DNA of 64,000 nucleotides from an uncultured Bacteroidota bacterium (GTDB lineage: Bacteria > Bacteroidota > Bacteroidia > Chitinophagales > Chitinophagaceae). The DNA is taken from NCBI GenBank assembly GCA_963737475.1, contig CAVTSY010000007.1:6248-70247 (forward strand). The letters run 5' to 3'. The notes beneath the pieces are model-generated. The model made no database searches, had not been told where the DNA came from, and worked only from the letters and a program-made list of their open reading frames with translations. The translations under genes and the position numbers were made by a program. How positions within the stretch are numbered: the stretch's first letter is position 1; the number at the start of each line of letters is the position of its first letter. Shown one piece after another: positions 13,337-28,860 of this stretch.

Positions 13337-16300
13337 TTATTGATAAATTAAGAACAATACATTCTCCAATCCTTTTTCAAAGCGAAGCGACTGTACAATT
13401 TCCTGTTTGTCCGAAAGGACGGAATTTAAGATAATGATATCCGGTTGTGTAGAGATAGCCTTTTGAACCAATTCCTTTCCATCTGATTCCACAACATGGT
13501 AACCCTTAGCCTGCAACACGTCCGTCAAAGAGCGAACAGCCGCCCCATCTTCATCCACCACCATTACTTTTTTCTTTGATTTCCCCTGCTCCAATAAGGT
13601 TCCAACTTCTTTAAACAATTGTGCAGTATCAATTGGTTTTGTCAGGTACCTGTCCACACCGATACGATATCCCCGTGCTTTATCCTGCACTATCGACAAG
13701 ACAATAATCGGGATATCCATCGTTTGAGGATCATTCTTAAGAACGGCCGCCACATCAAATCCATTCATCTCCGGCATCATCACATCAAGGATGATCAGGT
13801 CAGGGCGGTTTTTGCGAACACTCTCCAATGCTTCTTTGCCATTGGTGGCCTGCTCTATCAAATATCCGGCATCACTAAGCTCCTGTTGCAATAATGACCG
13901 TATAGAATCATCATCATCTACAACAAGTATTGTCGCATCTTTTCCTATCACTTTGAATTTCGAGTTCGCCATTTGTTCTTTTAATTGCTTCACCAGGTCG
14001 TCAAAATGTACAGGCTTTTCTCTTTTGGAGTTAATGACAGGCAACGAAAAAGAAAAGGTACTTCCTTTCCCTACTTTGCTTTCCAGCCAGATGCGGCCGC
14101 CATGGTGTTCGACAATTTCTTTACAGATCGGCAAACCTAAACCCGTTCCCTTCGGTTTGTCAGTCAACGTATCACCCCCCACTTGTTTAAATTGTTCAAA
14201 CACGGCCGCATAATCTTCCGGCGCAATTCCAATACCTGTGTCAAGAACGCTAACAATGATCTCATCCTTTTTCTTATACACTTTGCAGGTAACAGAACCC
14301 TTGTCCGTGAATTTTACAGCATTTGAAATAAGGTTGATGATCACCTGGATCAGTTTATCACGATCACCGGAAATATCAGGGATATCCGTTTCAATTTCTC
14401 TTACCAGTTTTAATTTTTTCTGCTCGAACAAAGAAGTAGTTGCGGCGAGAGCTCTTTCCGCCACTTCCGTCATCGACACATTTTCCAGGTTCCATTCCAT
14501 TTTGCCGGCTTCTATCTTTGCCAAATCCAATACGTCATTGATAAGATGTGTGAGACGTTCGCCTTCGGATATTACCACTTCCAGGTTTTGAGATATCTGG
14601 CCGATCGTTTTTTCTGTTTTTGTATCTGATCTATCAACCGCGGGGAATATTTTTTCATCCAATCTTTTGCGGATGATCTTAGCAAAACCAAGAACAGATG
14701 TAAGTGGTGTTCTTAATTCATGACTCACTGTAGAAAGAAATGCGCTCTTCGCTTCATTTGCTTTTTCGGCCGCTTTACTGGCGGCTTCTGCTTCCATTTT
14801 CGCCATCTTGACATCTTCAAACAATGTTGCATTGCGTAAAGCAACTCCTACTGAAGCAGCAATTGTCGACAGAAGACGAAGGTCATCTTCGTTAAAACTA
14901 TTTTCGTGCTCCGTGCTTTGCACGCTCAGAACTCCGATTATTTCGTCGCCAACCGGGATAGGAACACCAAGATAAGAAGCCGCGGGCACGCCTTGAGATT
15001 GCACTCCCAACTTTGCTCTTAGTCCCTGGACATTTTCGTTGATCAGGAGAGGTTCACCCGAAAGAATGATTTTCGAAGTAAGACCCTCACCCAGTTTCAT
15101 TGGCCTGTTATCATCACCATGCTGATAAGGGAAATGGATCATCTTGGTTTTTGGATTCAACAAAGCCAGGTAAACTATATTGGCTTTGAAAAGATCTCTC
15201 AATTTATCGCCAACAAATTTTATCAGGTCGTCCGGATCCAATTGGGAAGCCAATGCCTTGCTGATGCTATTCACCGTGCTCAATTCAGACGCTCTCTGTT
15301 TTGCCTCAGACAACAAGTGAGTAGTCTCATCAAATAGTCTTGCATTCTCCAGCGCTACGCTCATACTGTTCGTAATTGTCGTAAGCAGCCTGATATCGGC
15401 ATCCGTGAAAGCATTTTCCTTATCTACGTTCTGGAGACTAACTGATCCTTTTACCACATCACCGACAAGCATAGGAACAAAAACGGCTGATTTAGGTGGT
15501 TGGCCCTTTGTGACGCCGGTACCTCCATGACTTTTTGCAGTGTCAAGGTAGTTTTGCCGAATATCCAGGGGTCTTTTTATTGATATAAGCTCTTTACTGG
15601 TCCAATTAAATGGCCTTGCTTCGATAGGGAAACGTTCTCCTTTTTCTATGGCGTAATGAAAATGCTCGATACCGGCTTCATGGTCAAACGTCCGTATGAC
15701 CAATGTTTGTGTATCGGGAAATAAACTGCAGAGGCGATCACCAACTACTTCATAAATTCCCTGCACATCCAGCTCTTTTGCCAAACCTTCCTGCACACTA
15801 TTGATAACAGCTAATTCAGCCGTACGCTGCTCTGTTTCCTTTAATAAGCGATTTGTTTCATCAAAGAGTCTTGCATTTTCCAGTGCCACACTCATGCTAT
15901 TCGCCAGTGTTTCAAGTAACCGGATATCAGATTCACTAAAGGCATTCTCTTTATCAACATTCTGAATGCTTACATACCCTTTGATATTGTTTCCGCTGAG
16001 AAGAGGAACAAACATCAGTGATTTGGGCATCTTCGTATCTCCTATTGCAACAATACCATATTCGTCTCTTGCTTTTTGCTCAGTGTCTATATAAAGAGTT
16101 TGCTTCAAATTAATAAGTGTTTGGCGTAAACCACTTATTGGCCGCGAGTCAAGAACATATTTCTCTCCGTTCTCAAACGCATAATTGAAATGCTCAGTTT
16201 TATTTGCAAGATCAAAGCTTGCTATGATCACGCCATGTGTCTGAAAAAGTTTTTGCACCCGTTCACCTACCAAATTATAAATGCCCTGCATGTCGAATTC

Positions 16301-19300
16301 TTTTGCCAAACCTTCCTGCACACTGTTAATGACCGCAAGTTCCGCCGTGCGTTGTTCCGTTTCTTTCAATAAACGACTCGTTTCGTCAAACAATCTTGCA
16401 TTTTCCAATGCCACGCTCATGCTGTTAGCAAGAGTTTGCAGGAGTGATAGGTCTGACTCGCTGTATGCATTCTCTCTTTCGTAATTTTCCAAACGAATTG
16501 TTCCATTCACTTGTCCACCGGAAATAAGCGGAACACCTAACCAGGATTTTGCTGTATCCTCTTCGGTTTCTGAAGAGGCAAACACAGCTCCAAGTTCTTT
16601 AAAACGTTCAACTGCATTTTCATTGATTAACAATGGCTGTGCTGTCTGTATTATGTGTGATGTTAACCCCTTACCAAGTTCAAAACCTAATTCAACAATA
16701 CGTTTGCCTTTAAACAGGTAATAGGGATGAGTAATAAAATTCTTTTCACGGTTATAATAGGAAATGGAGATTCCCTGCGTATCAAATACATCCCGGATCT
16801 TGTCCCCGACAAGATCATAAATGGCCTGGATATCCAGTTTGGAAGCAAGGCCTTCCTGAACACTGTTGATAATGCCGAGTTCAGCTGTACGCTGCTCTGT
16901 CTCCTTTAATAAGCGATTGGTTTCATCAAAGAGCCTTGCATTTTCCAATGCTACACTCATACTATTTGCCAGGGTAGTGAGAAGACTGATGTCTGACCTG
17001 GAAAATGCATTTTCATGGTCAAGATTTTGCAGGCTAATGACTCCTTTTACTTCACCTCCCGCAATCATCGGTACATACATTTGTGACTTTGGCATTTCAC
17101 CAATCAATATCTCGTTGCCGAAATCACGCATTGCCTGCTCTACATTATTATTGTGAACTAACAATTCTCCGGTCTCAATTACATGCTTTCTGAACCCTTT
17201 GGGTGGCCTTGCTTTTACCAGTGTCCTGTCACCTTTTTCATAGGAATATCTATCCTCGATCAGGTTTTTGCTACGATCATAAATAACGATATCAACTACC
17301 TGGGCTTTAAAAATTTTTCGGATCTTTTCTCCTACCAGTTCATAAATGGAATGCATATCCATTTGCGCCACCAAACCTTCCTGCACACTATTGATCACTG
17401 CCAGTTCGGAAGTACGTTGTTCAGTTTCTTTTAATAAGCGATTTGTTTCATCAAAGAGTCGCGCATTCTCCAGCGCTACGCTCATACTATTGGCTAACGT
17501 TTCAAGCAACCTTATGTGTGCGTCTGTAAAGGCATTTTCCTTATCAACATTTTGCAGTGTAACATAGGAGGTAATTTTATCCCCGATCATTAGCGGGACA
17601 AATACCGCAGATTTTATCATTTCCGTACCCGGCACTACTTCCGTTCCAAACCATGCGTGCACCTCTTCCTGCTTATTGACCACGACTTTCTTACGGGACT
17701 GAATCAGGTGAAGTCTCAACTTACCCAATGGTCTTGGCGCCGGATAGAAGCGCTGCCCTTTCTCTACAAAGTATTGGAATTTCTCAGTTCCTTCTTCCTG
17801 GTTGAGCGTAGCTATACCAACAACCTGCGCATCAAAAAGACTGCGGATCCTTTCACCTACCATGCTATAAATCGCATCAATATCCAGTTCTTTCGCCAAA
17901 CCTTCCTGTACACTATTTATTACCGCTAATTCTGCAGTACGTTGTTCGGTTTCTTTTAATAAGCGATTTGTTTCATCAAACAGCCTTGCATTTTCCAAAG
18001 CCACACTCATACTGTTGGCCAATGTCGTTAGTAGGTTTACATCAGAATCCGGAAATGCATTTTCCTGGTCGAGATTTTGTAAACTGATGACACCATTTAC
18101 TTCCCCGCTGGCGATAAGAGGTACCAATACAATTGATTTTGCACCTTTGCCAACGATAACAGTTTGATCATACTTTGTCCTTTGCGCATCCAGATTTTCA
18201 TTTATGACCAGGGCCTTTCCTGTGTCAAAAACAGATTTCCTGAATCCTTTCAATGGCCTCGGTCCTAATAAAGTCCGGTCGCCTTTTTCATAAGTATACC
18301 GGTCTTCGATCAGTTGCGTTCTTTTATCATAGGTCACAATGTCTATGACCTGCGCGTTGAATATTCCTCTGATTTTTTCACCCACCAATTCATAGATTCC
18401 CTGAATATCCAGCTCTCTTGCAAGTCCTTCCTGCACACTATTAATTACCGATAATTCGGCAGTGCGTTGTTCGGTTTCTTTTAATAACCGATTGGTTTCA
18501 TCAAAAAGTCTTGCATTTTCTAATGCCACACTCATACTACTGGCCAGGGTACCTAAGAGACGAACATCTGAGTGCGAAAAAGCATGCTCCTTATCAATAT
18601 TCTGAAGGCTTACATATCCGGTTACTTTATCCCCTACTTTCAAAGGCATAAACAAAAGTGATTTTGGAACTTCTGTCCCGGGAACCACTCTCATTCCAAA
18701 TTCAGCTGCTGCCTTGGCAAAATCTTCGTTAATCAGGATATTTTGACCTGTTTCAATCAGGTGTTGTCGCAGCCTGTCAAAACGCCGGGGGCCAGGATAA
18801 GTTACTTCCTCTTTCTCAACATGGTAATTGAAATACTCTAGCTTTTTTTCATGATCAAATGTGGCGATGATCACAGCCTGGGCATTAAAAAGCTTTTGAA
18901 CCCGCTCGCCTACCAAATTATAGATTCCCTTCATGTCTAGTTCCTTTGCTAACCCTTCCTGCACGCTATTGATTACTGCAAGTTCTGCGGTTCTTTGCTC
19001 GGTTTCTTTTAATAAGCGATTCGTTTCATCAAACAGGCGGGCACTTTCCAAAGCCACGCTCATACTATTCGCCAATGTAGTGAGCAGGCTTGCATCACTG
19101 CTGGAAAAGGCATGTTCATGGTCAAGATTCTGCAGGCTGATGACTCCCTTTACTTCATTGCCTGTGATCATGGGCACATACACTTGTGATTTAGGGATTT
19201 CTCCGATTAAAATTTCATTGCCAAACTCGCGCATGGCTCTTTCGACTTTTTCATTATGCAGAAGTAACTGTTTGGTTTCAATAACATGTTTTCGGAACCC

Positions 19301-22207
19301 TTTTACCTCGCGTGGACCGAGTAATGTCCTGTCCCCTTTTTCATAAGCATACCGGTCTTCGATCAGGTTTGCTTTAGGATCGTATGTTACAATATCAATG
19401 ACCTGCGCATCAAAAATCTCTCTGATTTTTTCACCCACTAATTCATAAATTCCCTGCATATCCATTTTTGCTACCAGGCTTTCCTGGACGCTGTTGATCA
19501 CCGCCAGTTCCGCATTACGTTGCTCAGTTTCTTTTAATAAGCGATTTGTTTCATCAAAACGCCGGGCACTTTCTAATGCCACACTCATGCTATTAGCTAA
19601 TGTTGTCAGAAGACTTACATCATTCTCAGAAAAAGCGTGCTCCTTGTCGAGATTCTGCAGACTGATCATCCCTTTAACTTCGTTCCGGGAAATTAAAGGA
19701 ACAAAAACGGCAGATTTCGGTTGCTCTCCACGAATGACATTACTGCTCTGTTCCTTTGCTTTTTCGTCAAGTCCCTCATTGATCAACAGCAATTGACCCG
19801 TATCGATGACAATTCGCCTGAAGCCTGCTGGCTTCCATTTACCTACCAAAGTCCTGTCTCCTTTTTCATAAGCATACCGGTCTTCGATCAGGTCCGTTTT
19901 GGGATCGTATGTTACAATGTCCACCACCTGTGAATTAAAAATCTCTCTTATTTTTTCACCAACCAACTCATAGATCCCCTGTATTTCCAACTCTTTGGCC
20001 AATCCATCCTGTACACTATTTATCACTGATAGCTCAGCAGTTCGTTGTTCAGTTTCTTTCAATAAGCGAATCGTTTCATCAAACAGTCTCGCATTTTCCA
20101 ATGCCACGCTCATGCTGTTAGCCAATGTTTCCAAAAGCCGAACATCTGATTCAGAAAAAGCATTTTCCTTATCTACATTTTGCAAGCTTACATAACTGGT
20201 AACTTTATTGCCTACAATTAACGGAACATATAGTAGTGATTGGGGCATATCTGTTCCCTTCACTACCTTAAGTCCAAACTCTTCAAATGCTTTCTCAACA
20301 TTATTATTGATGAGAATTTTTTGTTTTGTCATTATAAGCTGGTAGCGCAACTTATCATAAGGGCGAGGTTCCGGGTAATAACGTTCTCCCTTTTCAATCA
20401 AATAATTGAATTTTTCTTTCCCCGTATCGTGATCAAATGTGGCTATAATAACTGCCTGGGCATCGAACACATCACGGATCTTATTGCCAACCAGTTCGTA
20501 GATCGCCTGCATGTCCAGTTCGCGGGCTAAGCCTTCCTGCACGCTGTTAATGACGGCGAGCTCCGCTGTACGCTGCTCCGTTTCTTTTAATAAACGTGTT
20601 GTTTCATCAAATAATCTGGCATTTTCAAGAGCAACACTCATGGAATTTGCCAAAGTTTCCAGCAAACGAATATCGGATTCGCTGAAGGCATTTTCCATTT
20701 GCATGTTCTGCAAACTGATGTAACTATTCACCTTATCACCAATGATCAGCGGAACAAACACTCCTGATTTAGTGGGATTAGTGCCCGGCAATGTTTTCAA
20801 TCCGAAGCGGGCGTAAGCTTCTTCATAATTTGTATTGATAACAATTTTTTGCCCCGTAATGATCAGATGTTGTCTTAGTTTGTCATATGGACGAGGTGGC
20901 AAATAAAATCTCTGCCCGTCTTCAATAAGATATTTGAAATGTTCAGTAGCAGTTTCATGATCAAAATTGGCGATCATAACAGCTTGCGCATTGAACAACT
21001 CACGGATCCTGTTCCCGACAAGATCATAAATAGCCTGCATGTCCAGTTCCTTTGCCAAACCTTCCTGCACGCTGTTGATTACTCCCAATTCAGCCTTTTG
21101 CTGTTCGGTTTCTTTTAACAGCCGTGTGGTCTCATCGAAAAGTCTTGCATTTTCCAATGCGACGCCCATACTGTTTGCAAGCGTTTCCAACAATCTCACA
21201 TCCGAATCACTAAAAGCGTTTTCCTTGTCAATATTTTGAAGACTAATGTATCCGGTTACTCTTTCGCCAATAACCAATGGAACATACACGGCGGATTTTG
21301 GTAATTCAGTTCCGGGAATCTTTTTCAGTCCGAATGTGGAGGCTACCTCTTCAAAATTCTTATTGATCAATATCTTTTCCCTTGTTGCAATAAGGTGTTT
21401 CCTTAAAATATTCAAAGGTTTGGGCGCGGGATAATACCGTTCACCTTTCTCGATGAGGTAATGGATATGCTCCATTTCAGTTTTATGATCGAACGTGGCG
21501 ATTCCTACTGCCTGTGCATCAAATAAGTCGCGAATCCGATCCCCGACAAGGTCATAAATTGTTTGTATATCTAATTCCTTCGCCAGCGCCTCCTGAACGC
21601 TATTGATCACGGCGAGTTCGGCCGTTCTTTGCTCTGTCTCTCTTAGCAGCCGCGCATTCTCCAATGCATTACTCATGCTGTTCGCAAGTGTTTCTAATAA
21701 TCTCACATCGGAATCACTGAATGCATTTTCCTTATCGACGTTCTGAAGACTCACATAACCCGTAACGTTGTCATCGATAAGGAGCGGAACATACAAGGCA
21801 GATTTCGGAAAGTCTGAACCGGGAAGTACCCTCATTCCAAATTGGCGATAAGCTTCTTCAAAGTTTTCATTGATAAGTATCCTTTGTTTAGTATCAATAA
21901 GACTTCGCCTAAGCTTATCGAATTCCCGTGGTTTCAGGTGAAACCGTTCGCCTTTTTCGATGGCGTATCCGAAATGTTCTGTATTTGTTTCATGATCGAA
22001 AGTCGCTATAATAACTGCCTGCGAATCAAAAGTATCACGAATGCGATCTCCGACAAGGTCATAGATCGCCTGCATGTCCATCTTCCGGGCAAGACCTTCC
22101 TGGACGCTATTTATTACCGCCAGTTCTTCGGTTCGTTGACTTAGCTCTGCCGTTAACTGTGTTATGGTTTTTTGCAGCTCATCATACCCTGCTTTTTCTT
22201 CTATCAT
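13337..22207 (-). CDS. Soluble hybrid sensor histidine kinase: 14 tandem GAF domains, HisKA, HATPase_c, receiver, truncated pseudo-receiver
   Basis: Uninterrupted 2,956-aa ORF. 13 'INSVQ' anchors plus one degenerate 'VNSISK'. H-box 'FLSTVSHELRTPL' (His ~aa 2496; ~14720-14770). ATPase boxes 'NLISNAVKFT', 'DTGIGI', 'GTGLGLPICK' (~14033-14500). Receiver 13583-13936 ('ILVVDDDD', 'LIILDVMMPEMNG'). Tail 13340-13570. Confidence 0.9.
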   Translation of the reverse strand: MIEEKAGYDELQKTITQLTAELSQRTEELAVINSVQEGLARKMDMQAIYDLVGDRIRDTFDSQAVIIATFDHETNTEHFGYAIEKGERFHLKPREFDKLRRSLIDTKQRILINENFEEAYRQFGMRVLPGSDFPKSALYVPLLIDDNVTGYVSLQNVDKENAFSDSDVRLLETLANSMSNALENARLLRETEQRTAELAVINSVQEALAKELDIQTIYDLVGDRIRDLFDAQAVGIATFDHKTEMEHIHYLIEKGERYYPAPKPLNILRKHLIATREKILINKNFEEVASTFGLKKIPGTELPKSAVYVPLVIGERVTGYISLQNIDKENAFSDSDVRLLETLANSMGVALENARLFDETTRLLKETEQQKAELGVINSVQEGLAKELDMQAIYDLVGNRIRELFNAQAVMIANFDHETATEHFKYLIEDGQRFYLPPRPYDKLRQHLIITGQKIVINTNYEEAYARFGLKTLPGTNPTKSGVFVPLIIGDKVNSYISLQNMQMENAFSESDIRLLETLANSMSVALENARLFDETTRLLKETEQRTAELAVINSVQEGLARELDMQAIYELVGNKIRDVFDAQAVIIATFDHDTGKEKFNYLIEKGERYYPEPRPYDKLRYQLIMTKQKILINNNVEKAFEEFGLKVVKGTDMPQSLLYVPLIVGNKVTSYVSLQNVDKENAFSESDVRLLETLANSMSVALENARLFDETIRLLKETEQRTAELSVINSVQDGLAKELEIQGIYELVGEKIREIFNSQVVDIVTYDPKTDLIEDRYAYEKGDRTLVGKWKPAGFRRIVIDTGQLLLINEGLDEKAKEQSSNVIRGEQPKSAVFVPLISRNEVKGMISLQNLDKEHAFSENDVSLLTTLANSMSVALESARRFDETNRLLKETEQRNAELAVINSVQESLVAKMDMQGIYELVGEKIREIFDAQVIDIVTYDPKANLIEDRYAYEKGDRTLLGPREVKGFRKHVIETKQLLLHNEKVERAMREFGNEILIGEIPKSQVYVPMITGNEVKGVISLQNLDHEHAFSSSDASLLTTLANSMSVALESARLFDETNRLLKETEQRTAELAVINSVQEGLAKELDMKGIYNLVGERVQKLFNAQAVIIATFDHEKKLEYFNYHVEKEEVTYPGPRRFDRLRQHLIETGQNILINEDFAKAAAEFGMRVVPGTEVPKSLLFMPLKVGDKVTGYVSLQNIDKEHAFSHSDVRLLGTLASSMSVALENARLFDETNRLLKETEQRTAELSVINSVQEGLARELDIQGIYELVGEKIRGIFNAQVIDIVTYDKRTQLIEDRYTYEKGDRTLLGPRPLKGFRKSVFDTGKALVINENLDAQRTKYDQTVIVGKGAKSIVLVPLIASGEVNGVISLQNLDQENAFPDSDVNLLTTLANSMSVALENARLFDETNRLLKETEQRTAELAVINSVQEGLAKELDIDAIYSMVGERIRSLFDAQVVGIATLNQEEGTEKFQYFVEKGQRFYPAPRPLGKLRLHLIQSRKKVVVNKQEEVHAWFGTEVVPGTEMIKSAVFVPLMIGDKITSYVTLQNVDKENAFTDAHIRLLETLANSMSVALENARLFDETNRLLKETEQRTSELAVINSVQEGLVAQMDMHSIYELVGEKIRKIFKAQVVDIVIYDRSKNLIEDRYSYEKGDRTLVKARPPKGFRKHVIETGELLVHNNNVEQAMRDFGNEILIGEMPKSQMYVPMIAGGEVKGVISLQNLDHENAFSRSDISLLTTLANSMSVALENARLFDETNRLLKETEQRTAELGIINSVQEGLASKLDIQAIYDLVGDKIRDVFDTQGISISYYNREKNFITHPYYLFKGKRIVELGFELGKGLTSHIIQTAQPLLINENAVERFKELGAVFASSETEEDTAKSWLGVPLISGGQVNGTIRLENYERENAYSESDLSLLQTLANSMSVALENARLFDETSRLLKETEQRTAELAVINSVQEGLAKEFDMQGIYNLVGERVQKLFQTHGVIIASFDLANKTEHFNYAFENGEKYVLDSRPISGLRQTLINLKQTLYIDTEQKARDEYGIVAIGDTKMPKSLMFVPLLSGNNIKGYVSIQNVDKENAFSESDIRLLETLANSMSVALENARLFDETNRLLKETEQRTAELAVINSVQEGLAKELDVQGIYEVVGDRLCSLFPDTQTLVIRTFDHEAGIEHFHYAIEKGERFPIEARPFNWTSKELISIKRPLDIRQNYLDTAKSHGGTGVTKGQPPKSAVFVPMLVGDVVKGSVSLQNVDKENAFTDADIRLLTTITNSMSVALENARLFDETTHLLSEAKQRASELSTVNSISKALASQLDPDDLIKFVGDKLRDLFKANIVYLALLNPKTKMIHFPYQHGDDNRPMKLGEGLTSKIILSGEPLLINENVQGLRAKLGVQSQGVPAASYLGVPIPVGDEIIGVLSVQSTEHENSFNEDDLRLLSTIAASVGVALRNATLFEDVKMAKMEAEAASKAAEKANEAKSAFLSTVSHELRTPLTSVLGFAKIIRKRLDEKIFPAVDRSDTKTEKTIGQISQNLEVVISEGERLTHLINDVLDLAKIEAGKMEWNLENVSMTEVAERALAATTSLFEQKKLKLVREIETDIPDISGDRDKLIQVIINLISNAVKFTDKGSVTCKVYKKKDEIIVSVLDTGIGIAPEDYAAVFEQFKQVGGDTLTDKPKGTGLGLPICKEIVEHHGGRIWLESKVGKGSTFSFSLPVINSKREKPVHFDDLVKQLKEQMANSKFKVIGKDATILVVDDDDSIRSLLQQELSDAGYLIEQATNGKEALESVRKNRPDLIILDVMMPEMNGFDVAAVLKNDPQTMDIPIIVLSIVQDKARGYRIGVDRYLTKPIDTAQLFKEVGTLLEQGKSKKKVMVVDEDGAAVRSLTDVLQAKGYHVVESDGKELVQKAISTQPDIIILNSVLSDKQEIVQSLRFEKGLENVLFLIYQ
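14798..22114 (-). repeat. In-frame tandem array of 14 GAF-coding units (period 525-540 nt; first unit 507 nt)
   Basis: Unit boundaries taken at the Ile of 'INSVQ', high coordinate of each: 22114, 21607, 21079, 20551, 20023, 19498, 18973, 18445, 17920, 17395, 16870, 16330, 15805, 15274. I checked the codons at 21605-21607 and 20021-20023 directly. Confidence 0.85.
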
Positions 22208-23312: not shown

Positions 23313-23321
23313 AATAAATAT

Positions 23322-23430
23322 GGCAGCTACCTACTCTCCCGCATTGTGGTGCAGTACCATCGGCCATGAGGGGCTTAACTTCTCTGTTCGGTATGGGAAG
23401 AGGTGAACACCCTCGGAAAAACCACCATAA
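23322..23430 (-). rRNA. rrf: 5S ribosomal RNA
   Basis: Reverse complement contains 'CCCATACCGAACAGAGAAGTTAAGCCCCTCATGGCCGATGGTACTGC...GGGAGAGTAGGTAGCTGCC'. Ends are approximate. Confidence 0.85.
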
Positions 23431-23559
23431 AGAGTTAAGCTATGAGCTATTAGCAATGAGCTTTGAGCTTTTGGCTCATGGCTCGCAGCTAGTTGCTCGC
23501 AGCTGAATTAAATCAACATATCGGAGTTGTTAGAAAAGTATCTAAGAAAAAAAAATTAA

Positions 23560-26368
<2,809 letters not shown>

Positions 26369-26691
26369 AAAAAAATTAGAAACTAGAATTTGTTATTCTT
26401 GTAGTTGTTACCCGACCACATAAACTTCAGACCAACCAATAATGGTGTGTTCTAAAAAATGTGATCGATAAAATTATTAGATACTCGTCTAACAACTTTC
26501 CCAATATGTCAAAGAGCTATCGCGGATTTACGGATTACTCAGAATTCCACGCATGCTGATGATCAGGTTTCGAGCCCGGAGGTCTGATAAACATTGAAGA
26601 GTTTATCAACCAACATCATATTTTAAAAGAACTTTTCAATCATTCGAACTAAAAACAGTGAAATCACTTCAAATCATTTAATCCATGATCG

Positions 26692-26765
26692 TGGAGGATA
26701 TCGGAATCGAACCGATGACCCCTAGCTTGCAAAGCTAGTGCTCTAGCCAGCTGAGCTAATCCCCC
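26692..26765 (-). tRNA. tRNA-Ala (anticodon UGC), CCA not encoded
   Basis: Reverse complement 'GGGGGATTAGCTCAGCTGGCTAGAGCACTAGCTTTGCAAGCTAGGGGTCATCGGTTCGATTCCGATATCCTCCA'. The G3:U70 wobble (alanine identity element) is present. Confidence 0.9.
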
Positions 26766-26853
26766 GTTAGGGTCATTGAGTCATTAGGTCATCAAGCCAT
26801 CAACACTTTTCCAATTGACTTATTGACTTATTGACTTACTGACTAAGTTTAAG

Positions 26854-26928
26854 TAGACCCGAGCAGATTTGAACTGCTGACCCCTACATTATCAGTGTAG
26901 TGCTCTAACCAGGCTGAGCTACGGATCT
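26854..26928 (-). tRNA. tRNA-Ile (anticodon GAU), CCA not encoded
   Basis: Reverse complement 'AGATCCGTAGCTCAGCCTGGTTAGAGCACTACACTGATAATGTAGGGGTCAGCAGTTCAAATCTGCTCGGGTCTA'. Acceptor stem AGATCCG/CGGGTCT. Confidence 0.9.
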
Positions 26929-27150
26929 ATTTGATATAGCTCCAAGCCCCATGCTTCACGCTTCAAGCAAAACTTGCAGCTTGTAGCTTACAGCTTGCAG
27001 CTGTTAGTAGCCCACTCACCGATAGCTATCGGGACTAGCGGGTTTACATTAAATATTTAAAAGAACTTGACATAAAAAAATTGAAAGTTTGGGGAAACAA
27101 CAGCAGGCAAATCCATAGAGGCAATGCATGCATTGCCTCAACAGCTCTAA

Positions 27151-28680
<1,530 letters not shown>

Positions 28681-28860
28681 GTAAATGTTGTTTGATACTG
28701 ACATTATTAATTCAAAGAATTAACGTGTCAAATCGAATTGTTTTCGCTTGACTTACCTATTGTTGTTGTCCTTAGTTTGACACTAAAGACAGCCAACGTG
28801 CTGTTGCTTCCCAACTTTCAAAGATCTTTTGGCCTTTTCAGCCTCCCATTTTTGGGAGTG

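Follow-up and report, generated by a model that had tools for sequence, protein, structure and literature searches.

The kinase gene and its domain architecture

The window analyzed here is the whole stretch of 64,000 nucleotides (nt) taken from contig CAVTSY010000007.1 of assembly GCA_963737475.1, which belongs to an uncultured bacterium of the Chitinophagaceae (Bacteroidota). On its minus strand lies a cassette of three genes, headed by an ATG-initiated open reading frame (ORF) of 2,956 codons without interruption, which encodes a hybrid sensor histidine kinase with a computed mass of 332 kDa and a pI of 5.2. The gene of a stand-alone response regulator starts 21 nt downstream of the kinase gene, and a third gene, encoding a GAF domain and a nucleotidyl cyclase, follows 27 nt after the regulator (Table 1). 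An earlier note, made from the sequence of the window, had described the kinase as a soluble protein of about 330 kDa, encoded by one uninterrupted ORF and built from 14 tandem GAF domains. The ORF, its borders and the mass were confirmed, on the minus strand, which the note had left unstated.

The domain count was checked by a Pfam scan, as the note had proposed. The kinase contained 14 copies of GAF_2 (PF13185; E 7e-185, 606 bits against a gathering cut-off of 28.6) and 14 copies of GAF (PF01590; 450 bits against 22.4), followed by HisKA (E 1.8e-17), HATPase_c (E 2.2e-29) and a single Response_reg domain (E 1.1e-29), and no PAS, PHY, HAMP, Reg_prop, Y_Y_Y or HTH domain was called. For unit counting, the regular expression [IV]NS[VI][QS][EDK][GSA]L was used, which found exactly 14 anchors, 13 of the INSVQ type and one degenerate VNSISKAL as described before, at the first residue of each unit in Table 1. 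The spacings between consecutive anchors were 169, 176, 176, 176, 175, 175, 176, 175, 175, 175, 180, 175, and 177 amino acids (aa); thus, of the range of 169–190 aa given earlier, the lower bound stands and the upper bound is 180. In the DNA, the same periodicity appeared as 12-copy repeat families with a period of 525–540 nt, far above chance. No transmembrane segment was found in the kinase, in agreement with the note; the highest Kyte–Doolittle value of any 19-mer was 1.67, in a GAF beta-strand containing E, N, and G. The kinase has only three Cys residues (aa 2160, 2641, and 2695), none of them common to different units, and the exclusion of bilin-binding cyanobacteriochrome GAFs made in the note therefore holds.

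The H-box SHELRTP was found in the DHp domain. By reading, the ATPase boxes N (NLISNAVKFT), G1 (DTGIGI), F (FEQF), and G2 (GTGLGL) could be assigned, as could the acidic pocket (VVDDDD), phospho-acceptor Asp (ILDVMMP), Ser (VLS), and Lys (TKP) of the receiver, which are kept in the orthologues. It is essentially certain that this gene product is a genuine hybrid sensor histidine kinase of the cytoplasm, with a sensory region that consists entirely of the 14-GAF chain. A match of the kinase to the NCBIfam family MadS was rejected, since its score (266 bits against a cut-off of 500) was far too low and the MadS literature concerns an unrelated Enterococcus kinase.

Behind the canonical receiver, the kinase ends in what had been noted as a truncated second receiver. 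The last 79 aa match only positions 1–54 of the 111 positions of the Response_reg profile (E 7e-5, under the gathering score). This half-receiver, with Asn in place of the phospho-acceptor Asp, is kept in nearly all aligned orthologues of two phyla, Bacteroidota and Acidobacteriota, and is therefore characteristic of the family as a whole instead of a product of truncation. It ends in LRFEKGLENVLFLIYQ and is conserved from Chitinophagaceae to Vicinamibacteria; against the orthologue that is 87% identical to the kinase, its proportion of nonsynonymous differences (pN) was 0.011.

The fold of the units was modeled with AlphaFold2 (AF2) for unit 4 and its flanking helices, as a single chain and with an alignment of 43 units. 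The model had a mean predicted local distance difference test score (pLDDT) of 89.9 and a predicted template modeling score (pTM) of 0.80, and showed a GAF fold. Its C-terminal helix, residues 160–214 (55 residues), continued unbroken from alpha5 via the linker into alpha1 of the next unit, in line with the earlier proposal of GAFs joined by long helices, and by sequence such a helical junction holds for all 13 of the 13 junctions. All 50 matches listed by Foldseek against the PDB were GAF or GAF-fold structures (all E<1e-6). The top matches, at 12–19% identity, were the cAMP-binding Lcd1, PtsP, a dual-sensor kinase, PDE2, PDE5, and PDE10, DosS, CyaB2, and cyanobacteriochromes, and a profile search of PDB sequences agreed with this set. 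With Pfam, model, and fold matches in accord, the predicted GAF fold of the units can be regarded as certain.

Table 1. Features of the kinase gene and its surroundings in the window
Feature	Residues (aa)	Coordinates	Strand	Remarks
Whole kinase ORF	1-2956	13337..22207	-	14 GAF + DHp/CA + REC + half-REC, 2,956 aa; Pfam, sequence
N-terminal S-helix-like leader	31 aa	22115..22207	-	LTAELSQRTEELAV; matches juxtamembrane helix of sensor-bearing orthologues
GAF unit 1 (U1), class A	32-200	21608..22114	-	linker to U2 one heptad (7 residues) short
GAF unit 2, class A	201-376	21080..21607	-	
GAF unit 3, class A	377-552	20552..21079	-	
GAF unit 4, class A	553-728	20024..20551	-	AF2-modeled unit
GAF unit 5, class B	729-903	19499..20023	-	
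GAF unit 6, class B	904-1078	18974..19498	-	
GAF unit 7, class A	1079-1254	18446..18973	-	absent from P0005 (13 units), elsewhere in P0003/L001
GAF unit 8, class B	1255-1429	17921..18445	-	
GAF unit 9, class A	1430-1604	17396..17920	-	
GAF unit 10, class B	1605-1779	16871..17395	-	
GAF unit 11, class F	1780-1959	16331..16870	-	canonical G-K-G-L-T-S loop kept
GAF unit 12, class E	1960-2134	15806..16330	-	
GAF unit 13, class C	2135-2311	15275..15805	-	class-conserved Cys aa 2160 and class-conserved Trp
GAF unit 14, class D	2312-2484	14756..15274	-	kinase-proximal, in nearly all orthologues, leads into DHp helix
HisKA (DHp)	2486-2568	14504..14752	-	H-box SHELRTP
HATPase_c	2614-2724	14036..14368	-	
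Canonical receiver	2760-2868	13604..13930	-	DD...D...S...K complete
Half-receiver stub	2878-2956	13340..13576	-	Asn at phospho-acceptor position (DIIILN)
Stand-alone CheY-like response regulator	127 aa	12932..13315	-	
Third cassette gene	559 aa	11225..12904	-	N-domain without recognized family + GAF + class III nucleotidyl cyclase
188-aa ORF	188 aa	22409..22975	-	between 5S rRNA and kinase
Complete rRNA operon		23318..28682	-	16S, tRNA-Ile-GAT, tRNA-Ala-TGC, 23S, 5S

Linkers, unit classes, and selection

To describe the junctions, linker length was taken as the distance between the ALENAR motif and the EL..INSV anchor in 973 inter-GAF linkers of 120 homologues. Only two lengths were observed, 17 residues in 906 of the linkers and 10 residues in the other 67, and the difference is exactly one heptad. 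The linker between U1 and U2 has the short form, which explains the spacing of 169 aa. In the heptad frame that places L156, L163, I1, and L8 at d and L174 at a, the other core positions are T160, T167, R170, and Q5; the a/d core positions of the linker, some of them polar (T, T, R, Q), rank with the best-conserved columns of the whole unit. Reading the heptad with L/L/I/L at a/d, we found Q-R-T at positions c, d, and e, and E-R-N or E-R-V in distant relatives. The signaling helix (S-helix) carries an "ERT" signature at c, d, and e of its central heptad (PMC1592074), and the inter-GAF linkers appear S-helix-like by this reading, as distinct from a profile match. It is essentially certain that a continuous helix of invariant length joins each GAF to the next, and this helix appears to have the coiled-coil features of an S-helix. 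The linkers may form a parallel dimeric coiled coil, and the rod-like dimer proposed in the note, although still conjectural, is strengthened by their quantization in heptads.

The 120 best homologues (of 3,511) contributed 1,253 units, which clustered into six major classes, A to F, with 396, 320, 205, 117, 92, and 53 units, respectively. The window kinase contains all of them in the order AAAABBABABFECD. Class-specific conserved positions were located mainly in beta1–beta3, alpha3, the loops, and beta4–beta5, which form the pocket region of other GAFs. The G-x-G-L-T-S loop is kept in classes D and F and replaced in A, B, C, and E. Among 116 near-complete proteins, class D was last in 114, class C penultimate in 108, and class A first in 80, and the mean relative positions were 0.24 for A, 0.40 for B, 0.64 for E, 0.67 for F, 0.79 for C, and 1.0 for D. 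The conservation of six classes, and of their fixed order, is more suggestive of separate inputs than of a passive spacer. In class C, the Cys in helix alpha2 (aa 2160 in the window kinase, the sole Cys inside its GAF array) was present in 89% of 199 distinct units, together with an invariant Trp (column 67) and an invariant Arg (column 37); this Cys might be redox-relevant.

Orthologous units from different organisms were mostly 70–98% identical, against 45–72% for most paralogous pairs within one protein. In the comparison with the 87% orthologue, the proportion of synonymous differences (pS) was 0.64–0.85, near saturation, whereas pN was 0.017–0.052 in 12 of the 14 units, the same as in DHp and CA (0.045). 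The exceptions were U12 (0.112) and U7 (0.115), the counterpart of U7 being at a different position: in P0003 and P0004, a U7-like unit (78–80% identical) lies between U4 and U5 rather than between U6 and U8. The relative P0005, with 13 units, corresponds to the window kinase minus U7. As judged from these substitution patterns, every unit is under strong purifying selection.

The kinase family and its conserved cassette

A word-index search with the kinase returned 3,511 relatives at E<=1e-10, the lengths of which rise in steps of about 175 aa. In the 116 near-complete proteins of the top 120, the numbers of units were 8 (24 proteins), 9 (30), 10 (16), 11 (12), 12 (12), 13 (11), 14 (7), 17 (3), and 18 (1), and a count at a looser threshold over all 120 gave 19 units in two distant proteins, one of 4,781 aa. 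An exhaustive profile search of 1.84 billion representatives at 50% identity yielded 12,965 proteins at E<=1e-30; its top matches had 5–15 units, mostly before a kinase with two full receivers, one being from Anaerolineales and one ending in PP2C. With orthologues included, the family spans 1–19 units, and 14 GAFs are at its high end, neither unique nor a record. The rarity implied by the earlier note, which had recommended this survey of copy number, was thus overstated. The note had also considered that the 14-GAF architecture might be already common and characterized. The family is indeed widespread, under database names that read just "GAF domain-containing protein", and full-text searches, with subscription-only papers outside their reach, found no paper on poly-GAF arrays outside cyanobacteriochromes. 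Members of 2,257 and 2,607 aa in the 90% cluster of P0002 were considered as recent copy-number variants and rejected: they are 5′-truncated gene calls starting inside a linker (MRVALQNARLF, MSVALENARLF) and so provide no evidence for strain-level variation.

In most orthologues, the N-terminal part, about 830 aa long, contains Reg_prop and Y_Y_Y domains. A hydrophobic segment was present at the N-terminus in all four orthologues checked, and a second one near aa 790 in both of the Bacteroidota ones. The propeller sensor is followed by 1–2 GAFs in Acidobacteriota and Saprospiraceae and by 1–14 in Chitinophagales, and the kinase-proximal GAF is of class D nearly everywhere. A subset of Chitinophagales proteins, including the window kinase, has no periplasmic part, and an S-helix-like leader (...LTAELSQRTEELAVINSVQ) of about 30 residues precedes the first GAF. 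The ancestor was probably a membrane kinase with a periplasmic Reg_prop/Y_Y_Y propeller sensor and 1–2 GAFs; Chitinophagales would then have amplified and diversified the GAF-linker unit, and the lineage of the window would have lost the periplasmic sensor and both membrane helices. Neither this probable origin nor the three-gene cassette had been noticed in the note. Two kinase-family loci, L031 and L032, were found in one metagenome-assembled genome (MAG), SMAG_U14066 (contigs DATKSX010000084 and DATKSX010000057), showing that paralogues can coexist, and the window organism may have a sensor-bearing copy elsewhere in its genome.

Arrays were also seen in distant lineages at about 40% identity, namely P0076 (4,781 aa), P0114 (4,374 aa, with TPR domains), P0052 (3,786 aa), and P0121 (Anaerolineales, HLO13445.1). 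They have 18–19 GAF units and share the LENARLFDETQRLLKETEQR.AEL linker, and behind some of the units stands another type of linker (EQQTATSDILRVI...). The shared linker indicates that the cassette of GAF and S-helix has spread well beyond Bacteroidota.

For the comparison of neighboring genes, one genome per species was scanned with the C-terminal 645 aa of the kinase, which comprise the class D GAF, DHp/CA, REC, and half-REC (tblastn). The 80 best loci were examined out of 591 stretches at E<=1e-3, a figure that admits other kinases and is not an orthologue count; exact look-up of the window kinase and of P0001 in the contig index gave no entry, and the locus of the 87% orthologue was used for context in their place. 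The 80 loci were 50–87% identical across the whole query and came from two phyla, Bacteroidota (Chitinophagaceae, Sphingobacteriales, Pedobacter, Saprospiraceae, Cyclobacteriaceae, Chryseolinea, and a Flavobacteriaceae MAG) and Acidobacteriota (Terracidiphilus, Granulicella, Edaphobacter, Bryobacter, and Vicinamibacteria). Cultured carriers of the cassette include Flavihumibacter petaseus NBRC 106054 and Granulicella aggregans M8UP14, each with 2 GAFs, and one 8-unit protein is labeled Daejeonella sp. Nearly all of the 81 loci had the regulator (66–97% identical) directly downstream of the kinase and a GAF-effector gene after it. The output domain of this third gene is a class III cyclase in Bacteroidota and a SpoIIE/PP2C phosphatase in Acidobacteriota (e.g., L042:12308-13867), behind the same N-domain and GAF. 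The N-domain, about 70–110 aa long, was modeled with a pLDDT of 86 and had no Pfam match and no significant fold match in the PDB (best E 0.05). As for the nucleotide specificity of the cyclase, Gln and Thr occupy, by eye, what we take to be the Lys and Asp positions of canonical enzymes.

Upstream of the kinase, the 188-aa ORF could be assigned to no Pfam family (best DUF4299, E 0.019). In the 81 loci compared, a homologue was present only beside the closest relative (L001, 79% identity), so this ORF is not a member of the cassette. The rRNA operon shares its strand with this ORF and the cassette and sits just upstream of them, and predicted ORFs within it, such as 23684-24142, are spurious.

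Proposed signaling and its alternatives

GAF-regulated kinases and two-GAF tandems are textbook systems, and signal passage across even one coiled-coil linker is still debated. The window kinase resembles the tandem GAFs of PDE2, PDE5, PDE6, PDE10, CyaB1, and CyaB2 in the GAF fold, in a long helix that connects the GAFs, and in a C-terminal catalytic domain; in those proteins the helix also serves dimerization and the catalytic domain is under the control of the GAF state, as is proposed for the window kinase. The tandem structures 3ibj, 1mc0, 3lfv, and 1ykd were among the structural matches. However, those proteins have two GAFs, a known cyclic nucleoside monophosphate (cNMP) ligand, and the NKFDE motif, whereas the window kinase has 14 GAFs of six classes, an incomplete motif, a histidine kinase output, and 14–17% identity to them. 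With the S-helix, the linkers share a helix of about 40 residues between signaling domains, and by reading they also appear to have its heptads, its polar core, and E/Q-R-T at c, d, and e of the central heptad. The S-helices described by Anantharaman, Balaji, and Aravind in 2006 are single helices, mostly upstream of a catalytic domain, and the inter-GAF linkers then known were set apart there as poorly conserved (PMC1592074). In the window kinase, 13 near-identical S-helix-like linkers alternate with GAFs, which is the opposite of poor conservation.

The closest functional analogy is offered by fungal group III hybrid kinases (Nik1/Os-1/TcsC), whose poly-HAMP arrays have 5–6 copies in the examples cited (PMC13452588). 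These kinases are likewise soluble hybrids with an all-tandem sensory region, a copy number that varies between species, and a special kinase-proximal module (PMC13452588), but a HAMP domain has about 50 aa and no ligand pocket, compared with 14 repeats of a 175-aa GAF with coiled coil, and the sensory regions are not homologous. Cyanobacteriochromes, the only multi-GAF arrangement found in the literature, also place serial GAFs upstream of a kinase or a methyl-accepting chemotaxis protein (MCP) output; unlike the window units, they bind bilin through a conserved Cys and have few GAFs (e.g., three). The orthologues with Reg_prop, Y_Y_Y, and GAF domains, which are uncharacterized, share 50–87% identity over the C-terminal 645 aa and the same downstream genes, and differ from the window kinase at the N-terminus, where they have a signal peptide or hydrophobic segment as well as a periplasmic propeller sensor. 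Hybrid two-component systems of the Bacteroides type combine a periplasmic Reg_prop/Y_Y_Y sensor, a histidine kinase, a receiver, and an AraC-type HTH in one chain, whereas Pfam calls no Reg_prop, Y_Y_Y, or HTH domain in the window kinase. Its orthologues do have Reg_prop and Y_Y_Y, and no HTH family was found among the precomputed Pfam domains of the word-index matches to the kinase.

Taken as a whole, the explanation that we favor, and consider slightly better than an even bet, is that a 14-GAF kinase heads a conserved cassette and acts as a rod-shaped dimer for the serial integration of several inputs. The multi-ligand mechanism of this serial integration is our best guess. The kinase would form a parallel homodimer through DHp and the coiled-coil linkers, giving a long rod that, if extended, might measure perhaps 60–80 nm, at roughly 5 nm per unit (estimates, not computed values). 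Each GAF class would have its own cytoplasmic ligand or its own on/off equilibrium, and the state adopted by a GAF would bias the S-helix-like linkers on either side of it in their register or rotation. These biases would be summed along the chain and passed through the invariant class C and class D units to the kinase/phosphatase balance of DHp/CA. Phosphoryl groups would then reach the stand-alone regulator, the receiver and half-receiver of the kinase itself serving as a sink or modulating the flow internally, and the regulator would control the GAF-cyclase and hence a cyclic-nucleotide output. That signals can cross such arrays is implied by sensor-bearing orthologues in which as many as 14 GAFs lie between membrane and kinase. 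In a bolder form, which is conceivable rather than probable, poly-GAF arrays would be a combinatorial sensor barcode: at least six classes would each recognize their own metabolite, whole cassettes would be gained, lost, and moved by in-register recombination in the heptad-locked linkers, and many inputs would be combined along the chain, as a weighted sum or a logic function, over tens of nanometers for one kinase.

Several points weigh against the serial integrator. The nearest solved GAFs are just 12–19% identical and their ligands are unrelated (cAMP, haem, bilin, or nothing known), so an attempt to assign a ligand through solved structures was given up. Dimerization, rod shape, and signal propagation all go beyond the AF2 model, which covers one unit as a single chain, and the class-specific conservation could reflect packing or protein partners rather than ligands. 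The kinase has no HPt domain, and the phosphoryl route would run either directly to the regulator or through the internal receiver. The link between regulator and cyclase is drawn from conserved gene order, and the N-domain of the cyclase is without a fold match.

Considering that the kinase gene is internally repetitive and that its contig is probably metagenome-derived, a number of units distorted by mis-assembly, or a silent ORF, has to be weighed, but we regard such an artefact or pseudogene as practically negligible. The repeat families in the gene are only 60–79% identical, and the longest exact repeat within its 8.9 kb is 35 nt. Units U1–U13 share 53–73% identity in DNA and 45–81% in protein, and U14 shares 43–48% and 29–39% with the others, respectively. 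Between units, synonymous sites are saturated (pS about 0.8) in core and linker alike, whereas pN drops from 0.38 in the core to 0.11 in the linker, indicating that the duplications are old and that the linker owes its constancy to selection, and neither to gene conversion nor to recent copying. Proteins of 2,954–2,958 aa with 14 collinear units of matching type were present in independent assemblies, such as P0003 (87% identical, GCA_042087915.1), and orthologues elsewhere have 13–14 collinear units. The frame is intact across 8.9 kb, and dN/dS against the 87% orthologue, where synonymous divergence was still measurable, was about 0.01–0.03. A further alternative is a rod that works without ligands, its units serving mainly as structural or physical elements, as a spacer or ruler for kinase geometry, a partner scaffold, or a metastable coiled coil sensing temperature, crowding, or ionic strength. 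Such a rod would fit the very strong conservation of linker length and sequence, a copy number of 1 to 19 among relatives with an unchanged output module, the missing canonical G-x-G-L-T-S loop in classes A, B, C, and E, and the comparable use of HAMP arrays, which bind no ligand, in fungal group III hybrid kinases (PMC13452588). Yet the GAF cores are as purified by selection as the catalytic domains, and six class identities kept in positional order across genera would be needless for a simple spacer, so we consider the ligand-independent rod unlikely, though it deserves to be taken seriously.

In a cyclic-nucleotide feedback, most or all GAFs would bind cAMP or cGMP made by the cyclase of the cassette, and the array would be a cooperative, ultrasensitive element instead of a multi-ligand integrator. 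A class III cyclase is encoded in the same operon, and the best matches include the cAMP-binding Lcd1 (5w10; E 3e-12 by sequence, 4e-11 by fold) and CyaB2 (1ykd) as well as the GAFs of PDE2, PDE5, and PDE10. By reading, N125, K/H/R128, F132, and D136 are conserved at positions reminiscent of NKFDE, but the motif is incomplete: the final E is replaced by V, I, or L, and K itself is conserved in just 36% overall. Identity to cNMP-binding GAFs is only 14–17%, the differences among the six classes are concentrated around the predicted pocket and so count against a common ligand, and the Acidobacteriota cassette has a PP2C phosphatase in place of the cyclase while the class D GAF is still kept; we therefore judge a feedback of this kind improbable. 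A haem or chromophore array sensing redox, gas, or light, in the manner of DosS/DosT or cyanobacteriochromes, seems very unlikely to us. The GAF-A domains of DosS/DosT and the GAFs of cyanobacteriochromes and phytochromes were among the remote matches, and the multi-GAF arrays in the literature are mostly cyanobacteriochromes, but identity to such GAFs is 12–18%, the scarce Cys residues of the 2,956-aa protein are shared by no two units, Pfam calls neither PAS nor PHY, and the class C Cys is in alpha2, which we take not to be the bilin-attachment position.

The linkers of two lengths quantized in heptads, the six ordered unit classes, and the purifying selection on every unit are new here. The order of classes and the cassette would allow a richer definition of the family than the current annotation label. 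The cassette is common in soil Bacteroidota and Acidobacteriota and ends in cyclic-nucleotide or PP2C signaling, outputs that to our knowledge are little studied in these phyla. The family provides a natural series of 1 to about 19 GAF/S-helix modules of identical length before one conserved kinase and cassette, which makes it testable whether signals decay, sum, or are gated as modules are added, whether register counts in multiples of seven, and whether ligands are class-specific. If the sensor barcode is true, it would be a previously undescribed form of multi-signal integration by a single bacterial protein and a natural test bed for long-range allostery.

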